Shown piece by piece: positions 21,287-31,600 of a stretch of DNA of 36,047 nt. This DNA comes from a virus. Both the position numbers and the translations under genes were made by a program. Under the pieces are notes generated by a model. That model was not told the DNA's origin, made no database searches, and worked only from the letters and a program-made list of their open reading frames with translations. The DNA is taken from the IMG/VR virus record IMGVR_UViG_2811994897_000004. One strand, 5' to 3'. How positions within the stretch are numbered: position 1 is the stretch's first letter; each line of letters begins with the position of its first letter.

Positions 21287-21403
21287 AATTGATTCTCCTT
21301 TGCACGTTGCTATGTACGCATTTAACCCACTTCACAACCCGCTATTTATTTTATGCACAACGTTTTGTACGTCAATGACCCGCAAAACCGTTCCACTTGC
21401 ATA

Positions 21404-21432
21404 ATTATAGCATTAATAACGAATATATACAA
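21404..21432 (-). promoter_or_regulatory. Promoter upstream of the scaffold gene
   Basis: -35 TTGTAT (21427-21432), 17-nt spacer, extended -10 TGCTATAAT (21404-21412). Palindrome TGCATA-A-TATGCA at 21440-21452. Confidence 0.5.
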
Positions 21433-21453
21433 TAAGTTGTGCATATTATGCAA

Positions 21454-21473
21454 TAAAAAAAGCCTTAAGGCTT
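21454..21473 (-). terminator. Rho-independent terminator after the MuF-like gene
   Basis: AAGCCttaaGGCTT followed by TTTTTTATT. The hairpin overlaps the stop codon. Confidence 0.6.
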
Positions 21474-22299
21474 AATCTTCTATGTCACTGTCAGTTACTT
21501 CATCTTTCGCAACGGCAGCTATAGAACACCTACATGACGGATGAAAAGGGATTGGCGGTACGTTATTCAATTTGTATATCTTGCCATCCTTGTCTAAGCA
21601 ATGATCACATGCTCCAGCTGATGTTATCCACTCTACCAAGTCATATCCAGCAGCTTTAATATCATGCTTCTGTTGCATTGCTGATATATGCGCGCCTTCA
21701 GTACGTAATATACGTTCAGATTGATAGTTGAATACATGGTATCTATCACGTATATCTGCAACGTGTGACACAGGATTTTCTTTTTCAAGCAATGACTGGC
21801 GCATAATTGTCAGCAAGTCACTTCTTAATGCTGATTGATGACGCCAAACATCATCTGACCAAGTGCGTCCCCAATAGTTCTGATCTATGATGTCGTCTTT
21901 CATCTCATTATTAACCAAATTATACATCTTAGCGCCCATACCAGCCGTGTATGTCTTATCTTTCAATAGTTGCGTACGTGTATAGTCAATAACTTTTGCA
22001 GCAGCTACTGATGTGAATAACAACGCTGCATAATCAATCAGTTCATCATTATTAGCTGGCGTTTTAGTCACAAAGCCATTTTTATCTGCATAACCATTCA
22101 ATTCATTAACTAATTCTTGGTTTGGCAGATTGCCATTACTCGATTGTGTATACTGCGGGTTCTTGTCACGAAACAAAGCCCACCAAGCGATATAAGCAAC
22201 CGATACACCTTTAATTATTGCTGTCAGCTTGGTTGAATGGCGCTTGTCCGCCTTGATTTGTTCCTTGCTGTACTGATACATTTCTTGTCTGTTCGTCAT
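21472..22299 (-). CDS. Head morphogenesis protein (Mu F / SPP1 gp7-like)
   Basis: 275 aa. C-terminal CDHCLDKDGKIYKLNNVPPIPFHPSCRCS matches the Phage_Mu_F signature. Overlaps the portal 3' end. Confidence 0.8.
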   Translation of the reverse strand: MTNRQEMYQYSKEQIKADKRHSTKLTAIIKGVSVAYIAWWALFRDKNPQYTQSSNGNLPNQELVNELNGYADKNGFVTKTPANNDELIDYAALLFTSVAAAKVIDYTRTQLLKDKTYTAGMGAKMYNLVNNEMKDDIIDQNYWGRTWSDDVWRHQSALRSDLLTIMRQSLLEKENPVSHVADIRDRYHVFNYQSERILRTEGAHISAMQQKHDIKAAGYDLVEWITSAGACDHCLDKDGKIYKLNNVPPIPFHPSCRCSIAAVAKDEVTDSDIED

Positions 22300-23791
22300 C
22301 GTTTTCCACCGCCGCGTCTCTCATAGCTAATCGTGTTGTTTCTGTGTCTTGGCTATCACGTTGCTCATCCATCATCTTAACAATCTCATCAGGGTCGTTA
22401 ACTTCAGGCAAGAACTTGTACAAGTATTGTTGTGGTAACGTTGCACCAGCTTGTACAATTTGTAATATAGTCTCAACGTCATCGCTTGGTAAGTTGTCGT
22501 GGAATGCAAATTTAATATCGTTTACATCAATTTTCCACGCGCCAGATACCTGTTGTTCTAATGTCTGAACGATTGTGTATAACTCGTACAATCCTTTTTC
22601 AAACATACGGCGCTTTGTCTTGGCTTGTTGAATAACGCCTAACTGCTTATAACGCATTGCCACACCTGAAGCATTACCAGCGAAACTTTCATCTGATACG
22701 TCTGGTGTTCGTGATAGTGTATGAATATTACGATACAAACGGTTCTTATACGCTTCAACGCCAGCTGTATCGTATTCCTTATGGATATACTGTGCGTCAA
22801 CGTTTGTTTGTCCGTTAACTGCGTTGTTACCTGACTTCAACAACAATAGTCGTGCTTGCTTTAGGTCTAGCAGAATTTGTTTCTTTTGCTCAATCTGTGC
22901 AGCCAACTCTTTATCATAAGTTGGGGATGTTGGATCAAGCGCTAATTCCATGCCGTCAGTCAATGAATCAATGTCGCCTTTGATAACCAACATCGCATCG
23001 TTCAAGTCAGTCATGTAGTTAGCAGTGTCTGATTGGGCTGCATCGTATGCGTCTATTAGACTGATAACGTTCTCATAGTCGCCGATACGTAAGTTGTTGT
23101 TCCAGAACTCAACGACAGGCAATGCAAACAGTTCTTCAATGTTAACCGGCACTAAACTAGGCGCAGATAAGTTAGTTGGTTGATAATTGATATGCTCGGT
23201 AGCACTCCACGTCTCAACGTTATATTCCATATTCACTTGCGTCATTGTCCCATTTGTTGTCACAACTTGCACAGGAACATAGCGCACAGCCATGATCGGC
23301 TTGTAGTCAACGTCTTGGTTGTAAATCATAAACGTGTTAACTGGATCAAGACGAACCAGCCGTTCATAATCATATCCTTCTTCACGATAAGCCAGTGCAA
23401 ATCCACGCCCGAACTTACCAGCGTCTAAGAATATATCAGAGTACAACGTGTCAACGTCGTTTTGTTTATTCACTTCGTCTAACGTTTCGTGGTCTTCGTC
23501 ATCAACATCAATCGTGATTGGATTACCAACACTGAATGACGCTTGGAAATCCGCAATCTCTTGTGCGAATGGATGAACCAATCGTGCATCAGAACCATCA
23601 TCCAAGCGTCTGCTATCCGGCTCAAGCACAGAGACGTTTTTACCTGAATAGTACGATGCCAATTTCTCCAATCGTGGTTGCTGATAATTTTTATGATGCA
23701 ATATAAAATCAAATATCCGTGATAAGTCTAGCTTACTCAGGTCTTCCTGATAAATGATATTTGCTTGCGCGCTATTTGTAATAAAGTCCAT
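22211..23791 (-). CDS. Portal protein (SPP1 gp6-like)
   Basis: ORF 22211-23815. The preferred start is ATG 23791 (MDFITNSAQ...) behind AAGGCGGA. The track start is a TTG without an SD. Size and position are typical. Confidence 0.85.
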   Translation of the reverse strand: MDFITNSAQANIIYQEDLSKLDLSRIFDFILHHKNYQQPRLEKLASYYSGKNVSVLEPDSRRLDDGSDARLVHPFAQEIADFQASFSVGNPITIDVDDEDHETLDEVNKQNDVDTLYSDIFLDAGKFGRGFALAYREEGYDYERLVRLDPVNTFMIYNQDVDYKPIMAVRYVPVQVVTTNGTMTQVNMEYNVETWSATEHINYQPTNLSAPSLVPVNIEELFALPVVEFWNNNLRIGDYENVISLIDAYDAAQSDTANYMTDLNDAMLVIKGDIDSLTDGMELALDPTSPTYDKELAAQIEQKKQILLDLKQARLLLLKSGNNAVNGQTNVDAQYIHKEYDTAGVEAYKNRLYRNIHTLSRTPDVSDESFAGNASGVAMRYKQLGVIQQAKTKRRMFEKGLYELYTIVQTLEQQVSGAWKIDVNDIKFAFHDNLPSDDVETILQIVQAGATLPQQYLYKFLPEVNDPDEIVKMMDEQRDSQDTETTRLAMRDAAVENDDEQTRNVSVQQGTNQGGQAPFNQADSNN

Positions 23792-23822
23792 AATATCCGC
23801 CTTAATGTTATTCAATACAATT

Positions 23823-23831
23823 ATTATATCA
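23823..23831 (-). promoter_or_regulatory. Extended -10 promoter TGATATAAT for the portal transcription unit
   Basis: Immediately follows the terminator T-run on the minus strand: ...GTGTCTTTTATTGTGATATAAT. Confidence 0.5.
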
Positions 23832-23832
23832 C

Positions 23833-23864
23833 AATAAAAGACACCCCGACGGATCGAAGTGTCT
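23833..23864 (-). terminator. Rho-independent terminator closing the terL / intergenic RNA unit
   Basis: AGACAC(ttcgatccgtcggg)GTGTCT followed by TTTTATT. Confidence 0.6.
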
Positions 23865-24148
23865 CAAGCACCGTCCTAAAACAAATGCCGCAATTATGTA
23901 CGCCCACTAATTTCGATGTTATCTTAATCAGCCATAGGGACTTCGTCTCTCAAACAGCTACCCAGAGATAGTGTGGTTTTTATAAACGTTATTTGCTGAT
24001 AGTATGTACGCCGCTATGGTGAGCTACACCAAGTTCGACTTTAGTACCGCAACCTTAATTGGCACCTTTATTTCTACCGGTAAGGAAACACCGTATGTCC
24101 CATGACAAACATACGGCGCGAAAGGAGGAAGTGGCACGATGTCCACTT
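23833..24148 (-). ncRNA. Candidate novel structured RNA (about 315 nt) between terL and portal
   Basis: No credible ORF. It has its own extended -10 and terminator. GC is about 40-50% by hand count, against about 25% in the other intergenic regions. Hairpins lie at 24128-24149 (7 bp) and 24089-24118 (10 bp). The 10-nt direct repeat GGCGTACATA occurs twice. Confidence 0.45.
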
Positions 24149-24152
24149 CATT

Positions 24153-24161
24153 AGTATATCA
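24153..24161 (-). promoter_or_regulatory. Extended -10 element TGATATACT just downstream of the terL stop
   Basis: Minus strand: TAAAGATATAAATGATATACTAATGAAGTGG. The predicted start falls at the base of the first hairpin. Confidence 0.35.
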
Positions 24162-24175
24162 TTTATATCTTTACA

Positions 24176-25453
24176 TTACAACCCAATATCCTTAACCGCT
24201 TGTACACGTTCTTTATATGACATGTATGTTCCTTTCTTATTAGTAAAGATAACCGATTCCAACGCATAGCCAAGTGCCTGAATGATGTGGTCTGATCCGT
24301 CTTCTGGTCTGTTGGTTAGGTTGCCAAACTTATCCTTAGCATACACTTTTGTTTCCATTTCTTCAGCTAGCCAATGCACGCGGGGATGAATGTGATACTT
24401 AAACGACTTCATGAATTCATAACGTTGTACAAAGCTGTCTTTACCTTTTCCTGCTGGTTGGACATTCTTCAATCCACGGCTTCTTAATTCCCCAATCGTT
24501 CTTGGTTCAGCACTATCAGCATAGATTGTTCCCGATATACCGCCATGTCGATAAATAGCACGTGCAATGTTCTCGTTAAGCATCCCCGTCTCATAGAACC
24601 CATCGTACACATAGATGTCGTGGTCACTAACAATTGCCTGCACAAATGCTGTCGGATCGTGAGTGAAACCGAAGTCAATACCCATGACGTGACGACCAAC
24701 GATGGTCTTGTAATCAAAGTCTTCTATGTTGAACAACCCTTCAAACACTTGACCTTCTGATATCCCCCAGTCGCCAAACACAGCTACTCTAGCACGTGCG
24801 GGATTGCGTTCAATCATATTCTCTAGTGATTCAATATACTGTTCATCAAGATGTGAGTTATCTTTGTAAGTTGTCGTGATTGCCTTTGAATGTGGTCGCT
24901 TTGTCATCTCATCAAAGAACTCACCCTTAAGCCAATGCTTCTCACTCCATGGGTTGAATGCCAGTATCGTTTGATAATAACCACCTTTAGGCAACACACC
25001 ACGGATTGATTCTTCGACTGTGTTGAAGTCGTCTATGCGCTTAATCTCGTACGCTTCTTCATAAAAAACACGGCACAAGTTCCCAACGTCAGCTTTGATG
25101 GAAGTAATCTTTAGCGGATCATCTAAGCCACGAAAATATATCTTTTGTCCGGTTGGTTTGTACTTTATTTCTAACGGACTGACAGTGAATTTAAACAACT
25201 GATCTAATCCTAATTGATGAACAGCCCATCGTATATTTGAGAATGTACTATCCTTATGCGTTGTCTGAAACTGTCGCACGACAAGCCAATTAACGTATGG
25301 TTGCTTCATTATCGTCATAACAATACCAAACGCAATTCCGGCAGACTTACCTGAACCACGACCACCTTTGTAAACTAGATAACGTTCATGGCTTGTAAAC
25401 AAATCTTTATATGCGCTGCTCACCAGCTCTTTTTCATTTATCGTAATATTCAT
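24176..25453 (-). CDS. terL: Terminase large subunit (PBSX/Terminase_3-like)
   Basis: Walker A YKGGRGSGKSAG with a nuclease-domain C-terminus. The preferred start is ATG 25453 (MNITINEKELV...). The track start is a TTG at 25519 that would read through a terminator hairpin. Confidence 0.9.
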   Translation of the reverse strand: MNITINEKELVSSAYKDLFTSHERYLVYKGGRGSGKSAGIAFGIVMTIMKQPYVNWLVVRQFQTTHKDSTFSNIRWAVHQLGLDQLFKFTVSPLEIKYKPTGQKIYFRGLDDPLKITSIKADVGNLCRVFYEEAYEIKRIDDFNTVEESIRGVLPKGGYYQTILAFNPWSEKHWLKGEFFDEMTKRPHSKAITTTYKDNSHLDEQYIESLENMIERNPARARVAVFGDWGISEGQVFEGLFNIEDFDYKTIVGRHVMGIDFGFTHDPTAFVQAIVSDHDIYVYDGFYETGMLNENIARAIYRHGGISGTIYADSAEPRTIGELRSRGLKNVQPAGKGKDSFVQRYEFMKSFKYHIHPRVHWLAEEMETKVYAKDKFGNLTNRPEDGSDHIIQALGYALESVIFTNKKGTYMSYKERVQAVKDIGL

Positions 25454-25459
25454 AATTAA

Positions 25460-25468
25460 ATTATAGCA
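25460..25468 (-). promoter_or_regulatory. Extended -10 TGCTATAAT placed 6 nt before the terL ATG (would give a leaderless mRNA)
   Basis: Minus strand: GGCTTTTTATTATGCTATAATTTAATTATG. There is no SD in front of the ATG. Confidence 0.4.
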
Positions 25469-25497
25469 TAATAAAAAGCCATCCGGCAGGGGATGAC
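25468..25497 (-). terminator. Rho-independent terminator immediately upstream of terL
   Basis: GTCATCC(cctgcc)GGATGGC (7 bp including one G-U) followed by TTTTTATTAT. Confidence 0.6.
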
Positions 25498-25624
25498 CTT
25501 CTATTACATAGTTACTCAAAACATGCCTTATTTAATCGGATAGGCTTTGACATAAGCAAGCGTCAACCAATCAGAGTGCCATACACCTTTTCTACTTTGT
25601 GCATCAAGCCCACCGCTTGCCTAT
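25468..25624 (-). ncRNA. Structured about 155-nt leader or short RNA, from the TTAAG-type promoter to the terminator before terL
   Basis: A 10-bp long-range helix, TAGGCAAGCG (25614-25623) with CGCTTGCTTA (25553-25562). Competing ATAGGC/GCCTAT/ATAAGGC pairings. No ORF. Confidence 0.4.
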
Positions 25625-25630
25625 GAATCT

Positions 25631-25680
25631 ATAATATCATTTATGATTGGGGATGTATAGTAGCTTAACTATTTCTTAAC
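25631..25680 (-). promoter_or_regulatory. TTAAG-type promoter cassette
   Basis: GTTAAGAAATAGTTAAG (25664-25680), then 27 nt, then extended -10 TGATATTAT (25631-25639). Confidence 0.5.
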
Positions 25681-25753
25681 AATTGAAATTATCCTAATAA
25701 TCTTTAGGTTAAGAAACAGGTATAAATCGCTATCAATCAAAACCCATTTAACA

Positions 25754-25963
25754 TTAATATGGTTTTTCATTTAATGGTTTTTCATTTAATTCTTTTTCAA
25801 TATAAAACTTAGCACAATCAATCACAATTACTCCAATTGTCATTCCAGTCATCATTCCAATAATAAACCACGTTGACAAACTTGTGTCTTTAAGTATTAA
25901 AGCACATGCAATAATAATAACATCCATAATGATTGTGATAAACGTCATAGTAAAACTTCTCAT
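25754..25963 (-). CDS. Small 2-TM membrane protein inserted between terS and terL
   Basis: Preferred start is ATG 25963 (MRSFTMTFITIIMDVIIIACALIL...) behind GAGGA. The C-terminus carries a 15-bp tandem duplication (LNEKP twice). Confidence 0.6.
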   Translation of the reverse strand: MRSFTMTFITIIMDVIIIACALILKDTSLSTWFIIGMMTGMTIGVIVIDCAKFYIEKELNEKPLNEKPY

Positions 25964-26497: not shown

Positions 26498-26506
26498 ATT
26501 ATAGCA
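26498..26506 (-). promoter_or_regulatory. Extended -10 promoter TGCTATAAT for terS
   Basis: Follows the terminator T-run: ...GTGCTTTTTTATTTGTGCTATAATGGG. Confidence 0.5.
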
Positions 26507-26510
26507 CAAA

Positions 26511-26535
26511 TAAAAAAGCACGACTAGTGTCATGC
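26511..26535 (-). terminator. Rho-independent terminator after the 105-aa exported-protein gene
   Basis: GCATGAC(acta)GTCGTGC followed by TTTTTTATTT. Confidence 0.65.
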
Positions 26536-26541
26536 CTGTTT

Positions 26542-26859
26542 TCAATAAACATCGACAACATGATTGCCAATTTTATAACTTGCTTTTTCATAACCTTTCA
26601 GTGAACTAATGTAAACTGTCTTACCTTTCTTAACCTTAATATCGTATGACTTTTTATAGTCGCCTTGATCAAGTACCTTTGTTTCTGTGTAAGCAATAAT
26701 TTCAAATTGTTTTGTATTTGACAAATGCAACGTCATATCATGCCCAACGTAAACCCTAGTCGTTTCATTGTCAACACGACTGACATTAATTGGTTTCAAT
26801 GGTGTAGCCTGTGTGGCGAATGCAAAAGAGCCTGCGATAATTCCTGCTGTGATGATCAT
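26542..26859 (-). CDS. Small exported or membrane-anchored protein (moron-like unit)
   Basis: 105 aa. N-terminal hydrophobic signal or anchor MIITAGIIAGSFAFATQA, then a beta-rich body. It has its own promoter (26889-26937) and terminator (26511-26535). Confidence 0.65.
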   Translation of the reverse strand: MIITAGIIAGSFAFATQATPLKPINVSRVDNETTRVYVGHDMTLHLSNTKQFEIIAYTETKVLDQGDYKKSYDIKVKKGKTVYISSLKGYEKASYKIGNHVVDVY

Positions 26860-26888: not shown

Positions 26889-26937
26889 ATTATAACAAAT
26901 AAAAAAGCGCTAATGTGCGCCTTAATACTTTCTTAAC
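26889..26937 (-). promoter_or_regulatory. TTAAG-type promoter cassette
   Basis: GTTAAGAAAGTATTAAG (26921-26937), then 26 nt, then extended -10 TGTTATAAT (26889-26897). Two further TTAAG pentamers lie in the 5' UTR (26877-26889). Confidence 0.5.
26901..26920 (-). terminator. Weak hairpin plus T6 between the operator and the -10
   Basis: GCGC(acatta)GCGC followed by TTTTTTATTT. The stem is only 4-5 bp. Confidence 0.3.
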
Positions 26938-28336: not shown

Positions 28337-28387
28337 CTTTATAGTCTCTATTTTGCTTTCTGAGCCATTTTAAGACTCGTTAAGGTA

Positions 28388-28396
28388 TTTATACCA
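28388..28396 (-). promoter_or_regulatory. Extended -10-like element TGGTATAAA upstream of the metallophosphoesterase gene
   Basis: Minus strand: ATGTAAAATGGTATAAATACC. Confidence 0.3.
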
Positions 28397-28436
28397 TTTT
28401 ACATTTAAAACTCCTTAAAACGTAAATTAAGTGCGT

Positions 28437-28595
28437 TTAATTTGTTTTTATGCAAACATGTCCGTAGTTATCAAAAAACACACCGATTACATCATATTCA
28501 TTTCCAAAATATCCAATATTGACATCGTTCACAACATGAACTTTTTTGTCTTGATCAAATTTACTCAACTCTTTAATCAATTCTTCAACTGTCAT
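28437..28595 (-). CDS. Hypothetical 52-aa protein (first gene of the late unit)
   Basis: Below the ORF-track cutoff. AAGGAG lies 7 nt before the ATG. Translation: MTVEELIKELSKFDQDKKVHVVNDVNIGYFGNEYDVIGVFFDNYGHVCIKTN. Confidence 0.6.
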   Translation of the reverse strand: MTVEELIKELSKFDQDKKVHVVNDVNIGYFGNEYDVIGVFFDNYGHVCIKTN

Positions 28596-29041
28596 TTTTA
28601 TTCTCCTTAAATTCATGAAATTCGTAAAATGCGTAAAATTAGAAATTCGCGACTTAATACAATAATAAATAAATAACTACCAAGTACGAAAAACTCTAAT
28701 TTCTCTAATTTTTCTAATTGCCCCCAGAAACTAGGCTATAAACTACTTTTATTAAACGCTATATATAATCTAACATAACTATGATTGTTGTTATATATAT
28801 AGGGTTTATGGTTATTAGTGTTAGTGATTGTTTTACCAGAAACGTTGATTTTTGGGGGCAATTAGATATTTTCTAATTCTAGCTAAATATTTCTAATTGC
28901 AACTCGTTATATATTTCATTTGTGTTACATTGATTAAATTAACGTGAGTTTATTTGTTTTTGGCGTTAGTTATTTAATCGATATATCATATAAAATATTA
29001 AATTGTTTATTTAATTGTGTATCCAATTATATTTTCTAATT
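28596..29041. repeat. Control region B: AATTAGA iterons, nested inverted repeats and an AT-rich tract (putative late promoter and/or origin)
   Basis: TCTAATT at 28695, 28704 and 28713 (9-bp spacing), and at 28872, 28892 and 29035. AATTAGA at 28637 and 28860. A perfect 14-bp inverted repeat, TCTAATTGCCCCCA (28713-28726) with TGGGGGCAATTAGA (28853-28866). Inner inverted repeat CTATATATAA/TTATATATAG. No ORF. Confidence 0.85.
28654..28719 (-). promoter_or_regulatory. Putative late promoter with three upstream 9-bp iterons
   Basis: Minus strand: AATTAGAAAAATTAGAGAAATTAGAG-TTTTTCGTAC-TTGGTA (28678-28683), 18 nt, TATTAA (28654-28659), then the 5' UTR and AAGGAG of the 52-aa gene. Confidence 0.4.
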
Positions 29042-29236
29042 TCAACCATCGTCCATATTTTCTTCGTCAAAATATTCAAAACTTAATTCGTGTGTCTGGT
29101 ATTTTCGTCCTTTTAGTACATTCACAATCATAGATGGATTGATGTTTAATTCAACACCTGCTTGTCTGACTGATTCATATACATGACGATTGCCATTTAA
29201 GTCGTACGACACAATCTTTTTCTTTTGTTTTGCCAT
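29042..29236 (-). CDS. Stand-alone homing-endonuclease-type DNA-binding module (NUMOD/IENR-like)
   Basis: 64 aa. IVSYDLNGNRHVYESVRQAGVELNINPSMIVNVLKG resembles the DNA-binding modules that flank GIY-YIG/HNH homing nucleases. SD AAGGAG. Confidence 0.45.
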   Translation of the reverse strand: MAKQKKKIVSYDLNGNRHVYESVRQAGVELNINPSMIVNVLKGRKYQTHELSFEYFDEENMDDG

Positions 29237-29245
29237 GACATCTCC

Positions 29246-31174: not shown

Positions 31175-31600
31175 TTATTCCATTCCAAAACTTGCTTTAG
31201 CTGCTGCTAGATAACTTCCATCATTTTGTTCGTAAAATGTTACCGTAACATTTCCGCCAGCATTTCCTTTTGCGTGCCAAGTTGCAATAATCGCTTTCAT
31301 TCCAGCAACATCAGACGTTATTGTGTTAATTGGTTCGCCAAACTTTGACTTAGCATCATTTAAATTTTTACCACCTACACCAGTTAGTGAATCTCCAATA
31401 ACAATGCTATCGTAGTCTGATTGTGTCATTTTGTTATCTGTCACGACTGGTTGTGAATTTGATGATTTAACGGTTGATGACTTACTTTCTGTTTGCACGT
31501 GCTTAACCGGTGCCATTTCTTGAAAAAGCAACTTACTGATAACAAACGATGCAATAATGATACCCGCGACAATAACAATAATCCTTTTAAATGTGTTCAT
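31175..31600 (-). CDS. Membrane-anchored secreted protein
   Basis: 141 aa. N-terminal anchor IIVIVAGIIIASFVISKLL, a Ser/Thr-rich linker and a compact C-terminal domain. SD AGGAGG. Confidence 0.65.
   Translation of the reverse strand: MNTFKRIIVIVAGIIIASFVISKLLFQEMAPVKHVQTESKSSTVKSSNSQPVVTDNKMTQSDYDSIVIGDSLTGVGGKNLNDAKSKFGEPINTITSDVAGMKAIIATWHAKGNAGGNVTVTFYEQNDGSYLAAAKASFGME

Follow-up and report, generated by a model that had tools for sequence, protein, structure and literature searches.

Few structured RNAs encoded by phages are known, and several of the recent ones proved to be anti-defence tools or unexpected assemblies. The streptococcal csRNAs (cia-dependent small RNAs) and other C-rich small RNAs (sRNAs) of Firmicutes occlude Shine-Dalgarno (SD) sites by pairing, and phages are known to carry mimics of type III antitoxin RNAs. 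Here we examined a locus in the viral record IMGVR_UViG_2811994897_000004, whose whole 36,047-nt stretch is referred to as the window. A non-coding gap of 384 nt (23792-24175) separates terL from the portal gene, and comparison with related phages makes it very probable that a genuine structured RNA is encoded in this gap on the minus strand, on which all window genes lie. The RNA offers a fold supported by covariation, a defined promoter and terminator, and a short testable motif, which we take to be an exact anti-SD tail. A phage-borne sRNA moron is known as a kind; the family and fold described here are new and narrowly distributed.

In likeness to the csRNAs, whose family number we take to be Rfam RF02379, the RNA would be a stand-alone sRNA of 90-150 nt with flanking hairpins and an exposed anti-SD sequence able to occlude ribosome-binding sites. 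It differs from them in being phage-encoded, in matching no Rfam family and in having a far larger conserved body with a pseudoknot; its motif is the full 16S tail with no anti-AUG sequence beside it, and its promoter is of the sigma-70 type. With the type III antitoxins (ToxI, antiQ, CptI) it shares a pseudoknot flanked by A-rich single strands and a weak ToxI-like match in the window, but it lacks tandem 34-45-nt repeats and an adjacent toxin gene. Phage RNAs that mimic guide RNAs exist, such as the single-guide RNA mimic rAcrIIA1 of Streptococcus phage Javan584 (bioRxiv 10.64898/2026.06.03.729762). Like such RNA anti-CRISPRs, the RNA is small, structured, intergenic in a phage and transcribed from its own promoter, with a long hairpin followed by further stem-loops. 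Unlike them, its long hairpin varies freely without a repeat-like GUUUUAG or a bulge, and no acr or aca genes are adjacent. What we take to be a brief similarity to the tracrRNA nexus is seen in the string AAYAAGGC...AAAGUCG. Among the RNAs described from Lactobacillales phages are the large ornate ROOL and GOLLD, with function not established (PMC12286853). These are likewise phage-borne structured RNAs of lactic acid bacteria and self-associate through loops, but they are 4-5 times larger than the present RNA, which has no Rfam match and whose oligomerisation is conjectured from palindromic loops.

The original prediction had failed to match the segment to any RNA family, and our searches agree with it. 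At the gathering threshold Rfam 15 gave no match in the whole window and, in seven relatives, only the tRNA-Trp of Weissella phage WCP_01. With the threshold relaxed to E<=10, nothing consistent was obtained: the locus matched only ToxI (17 bits compared to a gathering threshold of 50, E = 2.3), two relatives (contigs L024 and L015) gave unrelated chance matches that did not reproduce ToxI, and tracrRNA and CRISPR-repeat models had no consistent match in these three loci. ARAGORN found neither a tRNA nor a transfer-messenger RNA in the locus, TRF found no tandem repeats at a score of at least 30, and the sole direct repeat is a 10-mer whose copies lie 108 nt apart. The neighbours of the RNA are the portal gene downstream and terL or a DUF1642-like ORF upstream. 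We rejected a ToxI-like antitoxin (RF02519) on the weak unreproduced match, the lack of tandem repeats and the lack of an adjacent ToxN/AbiQ-type toxin gene. Literature searches found no description of the RNA.

Fold, strand and boundaries of the RNA

Relatives of the window were gathered through TerL and portal searches. Portals at least 65% identical to that of the window were found on the metagenomic contigs L001, L002, L014, L015, L017, L024, L029, L031 and L041, the L015 type being also represented as L016, L021, L022, L027 and L028. All of these relatives carry a segment homologous to the window gap directly upstream of the portal gene. What is conserved is a core of about 150 nt (24000-24149), which reads 5' to 3' P1, CCUCCUUUC, P2, a probable H-type pseudoknot (S1/S2), AAAGUCG, P3 enclosing P4, GGCG, 0-3 nt and UACAU. 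Downstream of the core follow 10-130 nt that vary with lineage and then a GC hairpin with a U-run. In the window the features are, in order of transcription:

24153-24181, minus: RNA promoter, with -35 TTGTAA (24176-24181), a 17-nt spacer and the extended -10 TGATATACT (24153-24161)
24128-24149, minus: P1, the 5'-terminal hairpin GAAGUGG/CCACUUC, a hairpin in the minimum free energy (MFE) fold of every homolog
24120-24128, minus: CCUCCUUUC, single-stranded and anti-SD-like, invariant in 10/10 sequences and present as a single copy in the window
24088-24119, minus: P2, a 13-bp hairpin with the hexaloop GUCAUG, supported by covariation
24043-24085, minus: probable H-type pseudoknot, with S1 CCUUA (24081-24085)/UAAGG (24053-24057) and S2 GGUGCC (24061-24066)/GGUACU (24043-24048)
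24010-24042, minus: AAAGUCG (24036-24042, invariant) and P3/P4, with P3 GUCG (24036-24039)/CGGC (24010-24013)
24017-24031, minus: P4, a hairpin within P3, UGGUG (24027-24031), loop UAGCU, CACCA (24017-24021), with compensatory changes
24003-24012, minus: GGCGUACAUA, the 3' end of the core, with the invariant UACAU (24004-24008); first copy of the direct repeat
23895-24002, minus: 108-nt lineage-specific insertion, ending in the second copy of GGCGUACAUA (23895-23904)
23833-23894, minus: 3' tail and intrinsic terminator; the terminator (23833-23865, 12 pairs) has its stem at 23838-23865, followed by UUUUAUU

The -35 element of the window overlaps the terL stop codon. The promoter motif TGnTATAYT was kept in all relatives, with a perfect -35 (TTGACA) in L002, L001, L014 and L017. 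P1 begins about 6-8 nt past the -10 element, transcription being predicted to start at about 24145-24149, and CCUCCUUUC directly adjoins P1 on its 3' side. P2, with CGCCGTATGT and ACATACGGTG in its arms in the window, has 12-13 bp across the sequence types around a loop that is GUCAUG in most of them. S1 takes the form CCYN/NRGG and S2 has 5-7 bp, with a conserved A-rich AAAnYAAG just 5' of S2. The tail and terminator are almost identical in L014, and all homologs end in a GC hairpin and U-run.

Folding energy alone is weak: the MFE z-score is -1.46 when all 360 nt are folded and -2.14 when only the core (first 150 nt) is, and the opposite strand scores +0.19. The case therefore rests on comparative evidence. 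Covariation in P2, S2 and P3 was counted in a plain MAFFT alignment (A4) which was not fitted to any structure; between the six sequence types the core is 50-75% identical. Standard pairs filled 94.2% of the helix cells compared to 32-50% when the 3' partners were slid by 1-3 columns, changes on both sides were present in 16 of 23 pairs, and the covariation score was 0.77 compared to 0.04-0.14 in the slid controls. None of 500 shuffles attained the observed covariation values. RNAalifold independently predicted P2, S2 and P3 from the same alignment, and at least one sequence was changed on both sides with pairing kept in 14 of its 21 pairs.

Taken helix by helix, P2 had both-side changes in 11 of 13 pairs with 93% of cells paired, and S2 was compensatory in 5 of 6 pairs; P3 was invariant and so uninformative for covariation. 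A manual parse anchored at the helix bases showed compensatory changes at 7/7 positions of P1 (63/63 cells canonical), and a manual parse of P4 did so at 5/5 positions in the six sequences that possess it. S1 was less secure, since MAFFT loses its register and the L015 type needs a shifted one; with a manual register anchored on the invariant CC and GG, 12/12 inner cells were canonical, which was matched by 81 of 20000 column shuffles. A point against an RNA gene is the small size of the family (10 sequences, about six of them independent), in which shared ancestry inflates covariation statistics. The slid controls retain this shared ancestry yet score far lower.

The strand of the RNA follows from its G-U pairs, which fill 59 of 207 helix cells. 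These cells pair on the gene strand only, and the opposite strand would pair only 66.7%, so the fold belongs to the gene-strand transcript. The strand favoured in this way is also that of the promoter and terminator. A covariance model built from A4 found exactly one copy per phage at 100-121 bits (in the window 24000-24127, 115.6 bits) and no further match in the window or in about 75 other loci.

Much of what had been read from the window by itself held in this comparison. An autonomous structured RNA of about 315 nt had been proposed; an RNA is supported, but the conserved unit is the shorter core. The signals on the gene strand, TGATATACT (24153-24161), the terminator (23833-23865) and TGATATAAT (23823-23831), were all found where they had been placed. 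The GAAGTGG/CCACTTC helix (24128-24149) is real and covaries in relatives, and the 10-nt direct repeat GGCGTACATA is exact at 24003-24012 and 23895-23904. The helix CGCCGTATGT/ACATACGGTG, given as 10 bp, is also real and covarying but extends to 13 bp at 24088-24119. A long-range CCATAG/CTATGG pair exists, but it uses the insert specific to the window and L002 and is not conserved. The GC content of the gap is indeed higher (0.37-0.48 compared to 0.24-0.31 around 25650-25950), a contrast that is valid only in part as the comparison region is partly a small ORF.

The gap had also been described as lacking a credible ORF, and this was borne out. Only short ORFs full of stops are present, and inspection of the homologous segments of relatives showed no conserved ORF on either strand. 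The 25-codon ATG ORF of the window (24074-24151) is unconserved, being reduced to 3 codons in L014, and every frame of the segment is broken by 1-6-nt indels among the relatives and by the stop at codon 4 in L014. A small ORF of 18 codons on the opposite strand of the window, behind the perfect SD GAAAGGAGG, was rejected because it is unconserved in L001, L014, L015 and L041; among the compared homologs, a start codon follows this SD in the window only.

The terL-portal junction in related phages

A DUF1642-like ORF of 136-144 aa lies between terL and the RNA segment in L002, L001, L014 and L017, where the RNA promoter (TTGACA, 18 nt, TGnTATACT) overlaps the last codons of the ORF. The ORF is absent from the window and L015, and the RNA segment there comes straight after terL. 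A new phage non-coding RNA and a long 3' untranslated region (UTR) of terL had both been offered as explanations of the gap. The second lacks support, given the ORF that separates terL from the RNA in four lineages and the overlap of the RNA promoter with its stop; the first is supported by the conservation, covariation and strand-specific G-U pairs in six diverged types and by the absence of a matching Rfam family. The original prediction had asked for conservation and covariation in relatives, and the helices were kept in six sequence types. An intact ORF at this position in relatives had been named as a sign that the segment is a decayed gene. Relatives do carry an ORF there, but it sits upstream of the RNA segment, and in L002 and L001 the counterpart of the window segment in the alignment is the non-coding stretch downstream of it. 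On this alignment to non-coding rather than coding sequence, we rejected a decayed protein gene or homing-endonuclease remnant.

Beyond the relatives listed above, a group with portals 54-57% identical to that of the window, including the cultured Weissella phages WC29P3 and WCP_01, lacks the RNA segment; terL and portal are separated there by a short gap or by protein-coding genes (a BppU_N-like gene, a 99-aa ORF). The terL-portal distance is about 50 nt in Fructobacillus prophages (TerL 62%). By relative, the junction holds DUF1642-like ORFs, a 245-aa ORF, a 99-aa ORF or a BppU_N-domain gene, at L014 1519-2739, L017 2260-2694, L043 2209-2508, L045 1193-2494 and L049 1627-3445. Compared in this way, the terL-portal junction is an insertion hot spot in this phage group. 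The RNA segment is an accessory cassette and not a decayed form of the neighbours' ORFs, and the RNA gene is a putative stand-alone small RNA gene carried there as a moron-like cassette. RNA and protein morons are swapped at this junction in this lactic-acid-bacteria phage group.

The 3' part of the RNA varies between lineages. The 108-nt insertion is shared by the window and L002 only (93% identity) and is absent from this site in L014, L015, L017, L024 and L041. At the same site, right after the core UACAUA, L031 has an unrelated tRNA-Leu-like insert of about 125 nt (1890-2015). Since unrelated inserts sit there, the site after UACAUA accepts cargo, which fits an RNA made of a core with a variable 3' appendix. 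The L031 insert has a D arm (GUGGCGGAAUAGGUAGACGC), a T arm (GGUGCAAAUCC) and a 9-bp closing acceptor-like stem, and ARAGORN called it, at a relaxed threshold only, as a tRNA-Leu with an intron. A 22-nt stretch of it is identical in Weissella phage WC29P3 (L049 5930-5951).

After the MuF gene, WC29P3 and WCP_01 share another, distinct conserved non-coding unit, about 165 nt long, which ends in ...GUGGGCAUACAUA (L049 5914-5924; L050 6560-6570) and is followed by a tRNA-like element in WC29P3 or by tRNA-Trp in WCP_01. In the window a third exact GCGTACATA lies at 21311-21319, in the 5' UTR of a scaffold-like gene. GCRUACAUA may serve in processing or as a signal at module junctions.

DNA-pattern scans of IMG/VR and the JGI metagenomes returned, besides known members, only L024 (a new type, from IMG/VR) and L031 (a variant, from JGI), the remaining matches all being rejected by the covariance model, and blastn of the core had no match among 50,697 phage records and 72,556 plasmids. 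The family so far comprises only metagenomic relatives of Weissella- and Fructobacillus-type phages. Its immediate reach is limited by this narrow distribution on a handful of metagenomic contigs.

Two observations concern individual relatives. In the closest relative, L002, terL is interrupted by an insertion of about 727 bp (1897-2623) with a 163-aa ORF that has a GIY...YVG start; the insertion probably represents a group I intron that encodes a GIY-YIG homing endonuclease, and it had no Rfam intron match at the gathering threshold. The end of IMGVR_UViG_3300023205_000134 (L001 4953-5029) folds back perfectly on the ~58 nt of RNA core before it, which is almost certainly an assembly artefact and was excluded from the analysis.

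Possible functions of the RNA

We tentatively favour a trans-acting RNA that may occlude SD sites in a csRNA-like manner. The nine letters of CCUCCUUUC are identical to what we take to be the 3' tail of Firmicute 16S rRNA, and in L015 the match to this presumed tail extends to CACCUCCUUUC. The RNA would act in trans. Its 5' hairpin and structured body would give stability and perhaps a handle for a protein, and would present an accessible 9-nt copy of the 16S anti-SD tail; this copy would pair with the SD regions of host or early phage mRNAs and block loading of the 30S subunit. In the window CCUCCUUUC has a predicted unpaired probability of 0.90, the second highest of 301 8-mers. Values of 0.90, 0.92 and 0.62 were obtained in three types, ranking first to third of all 8-mers there, and values were lower elsewhere. 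The best pairing site in the phage is at the gene starting at 31600 (dG -12.2).

Several observations weigh against an SD-occluding RNA. The accessibility of CCUCCUUUC is 0.008 in L015 and moderate in L017 and L041, values which hinge on the transcription start. A generic anti-SD seed does not discriminate between targets. An exact GAAAGGAGG target site is absent from the phage, which has only generic SD matches, and its own genes use ordinary SDs and would be hit too. The pseudoknot and about 25 invariant junction nucleotides are features that base-pairing sRNAs rarely need, and such a large conserved structure therefore points to a protein, ligand or catalytic role. One idea that makes use of both motif and scaffold is a mimic of the 16S 3' end, in which the hairpin and then CCUCCUUUC are displayed on the pseudoknotted scaffold. 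It would be a decoy for a defence nuclease acting on the anti-SD tail or UACAU, or an SD sponge that reprograms translation, perhaps as a kissing-loop dimer. We consider this unlikely; if true, phages would possess a counter-defence or take-over RNA of a new class, for which no relative has been described.

The highly structured body and invariant junction nucleotides would also suit a protein-binding decoy or anti-defence RNA, a role that we regard as somewhat doubtful. The pseudoknot and its single-stranded flanks (CCUCCUUUC, AAAnYAAG, AAAGUCG and UACAU) would neutralise a host factor, the candidates being an endoribonuclease of the MazF/ToxN type, as with the type III antitoxin pseudoknots, or a Cas effector, as with RNA anti-CRISPRs. 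The invariant UACAU matches what we take to be the pentad cut by MazF of Bacillus and Staphylococcus, and the anti-SD sequence contains UCCUU, presumably the MazF-mt3 site. In addition, GCRUACAUA ends the unrelated Weissella-phage non-coding unit and recurs in the 5' UTR of the scaffold gene of the window. An avoidance of MazF sites by the phage was rejected: TACAT looked depleted (69 occurrences compared to 127 in dinucleotide shuffles), but this was gone under a maximal-order Markov model (z = +0.18), which counts against a decoy. The strong constitutive-type promoter and the moron-like cassette are consistent with an anti-defence function, for which the guide-RNA-mimicking phage RNAs are a precedent (bioRxiv 10.64898/2026.06.03.729762). 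Against it stand the absence of tandem repeats, the 17-bit ToxI match that was not reproduced in other members, a P2 that varies freely, unlike a type II-A repeat, with no tracrRNA match, and the lack of a match in plasmids of lactic acid bacteria. As a cis-acting leader of the portal/head operon, the RNA would use its core to sense a ligand or protein or, like the put RNA of HK022, to modify RNA polymerase, and would gate read-through of the terminator. The element is always immediately upstream of the portal gene, on the same strand and with a terminator at its end, and its pseudoknot core is aptamer-like; the order of promoter, conserved pseudoknotted core, intrinsic terminator and downstream operon is that of riboswitch and attenuator leaders and of put. 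The five modules of hairpin, T-run and TGnTATAAT in the late region suggest that terminator control could matter. However, a conserved promoter, seen as an extended -10 in every homolog, lies between the terminator and the portal gene, and between the core and the terminator lie unrelated insertions (0-125 nt), of which one resembles a tRNA. No conserved antiterminator pairing was seen among the homologs, and close relatives have terL and portal coupled or a protein gene between them, which together make a cis leader improbable.

The position of the gene exactly between two packaging-motor genes, terL and portal, recalls the phi29 pRNA, which is likewise a phage-encoded structured RNA with a strong promoter, and raises a packaging-linked function; the loops raise self-association into kissing dimers or oligomers, as in ROOL, GOLLD and OLE. 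The P2 loop carries CAUG in all types but L015, and the P4 loops, UAGCU(A) in one lineage and UGAUCA in another, are different yet both self-complementary (AGCU/GAUC). The L031 and Weissella units adjoin tRNA-like genes, as ROOL and GOLLD often do. We nevertheless consider self-association or a packaging role very unlikely. The P4 palindrome is missing in L015 and L041, a conserved complementary loop pair is lacking (complementarity between the P2 and P4 loops was found in L015 alone, at 5 bp), and there is no Rfam match to pRNA, ROOL or GOLLD. As the junction is a general insertion hot spot, position alone says little, and unlike phi29 this phage has a complete set of TerS, TerL and SPP1-type portal, with close relatives that package without the RNA. 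Least probable of all, and in our view barely credible, is a non-functional remnant or a DNA-level element (a decayed gene, a recombination scar, or a pac, ori or single-stranded DNA hairpin site). Relatives do have ORFs at the junction and the window insertion is flanked by a 10-bp direct repeat, but the relatives match the segment in their non-coding part, and at 50-75% identity the helices are maintained through compensatory changes. The fold is tied to one strand by its G-U pairs, and both promoter and terminator are conserved.

Flanking genes and further units in the window

The genes on either side of the RNA and the start of the downstream unit, which lies outside the RNA, are:

24176-25519, minus: ORF of terL, with the likely true ATG at 25453; Pfam Terminase_3 (6e-53) and Terminase_3C
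23789-23831, minus: downstream unit, with the extended -10 TGATATAAT (23823-23831), the portal SD AAGGCGGA (23796-23803) and the portal ATG (23789-23791)
22211-23791, minus: ORF of the portal gene, with its ATG at 23789-23791; Pfam SPP1_portal (1e-82)

The motif TGnTATAMT was found between terminator and portal in all relatives, with variation at n and M only, and the portal gene is served by a separate promoter after the RNA terminator. Five modules consisting of a GC hairpin, a T-run and TGnTATAAT occur on the minus strand of the window (21404-21473, 23823-23865, 25460-25508, 26498-26537 and 26889-26923). They precede the late genes, namely the ORF at 26859, terS, terL, portal and the scaffold-like gene, and the late region looks like a series of short units, each terminated and then re-promoted.

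Between the DUF5906 primase/helicase-like gene and a 402-aa ORF, a region of about 900 bp (28337-29245) has no ORF of at least 70 aa and may act as an origin or in regulation. A second non-coding unit that runs from a promoter to a terminator (25467-25640, minus) lies between a small membrane-like ORF (25756-25963) and terL. Besides TGATATTAT (25632-25640) and a terminator (25467-25508), it contains a structured stretch of about 120 nt (MFE z = -2.45); it has no Rfam match and is conserved in L002 alone. Further downstream, TATAAT (25460-25465) is followed after 6 nt by the terL ATG at 25453, without an SD (window 25453-25468), and terL appears from this layout to be leaderless. The start of terL in L017 is laid out as in the window, and that in L002 is led by GGAGG instead.

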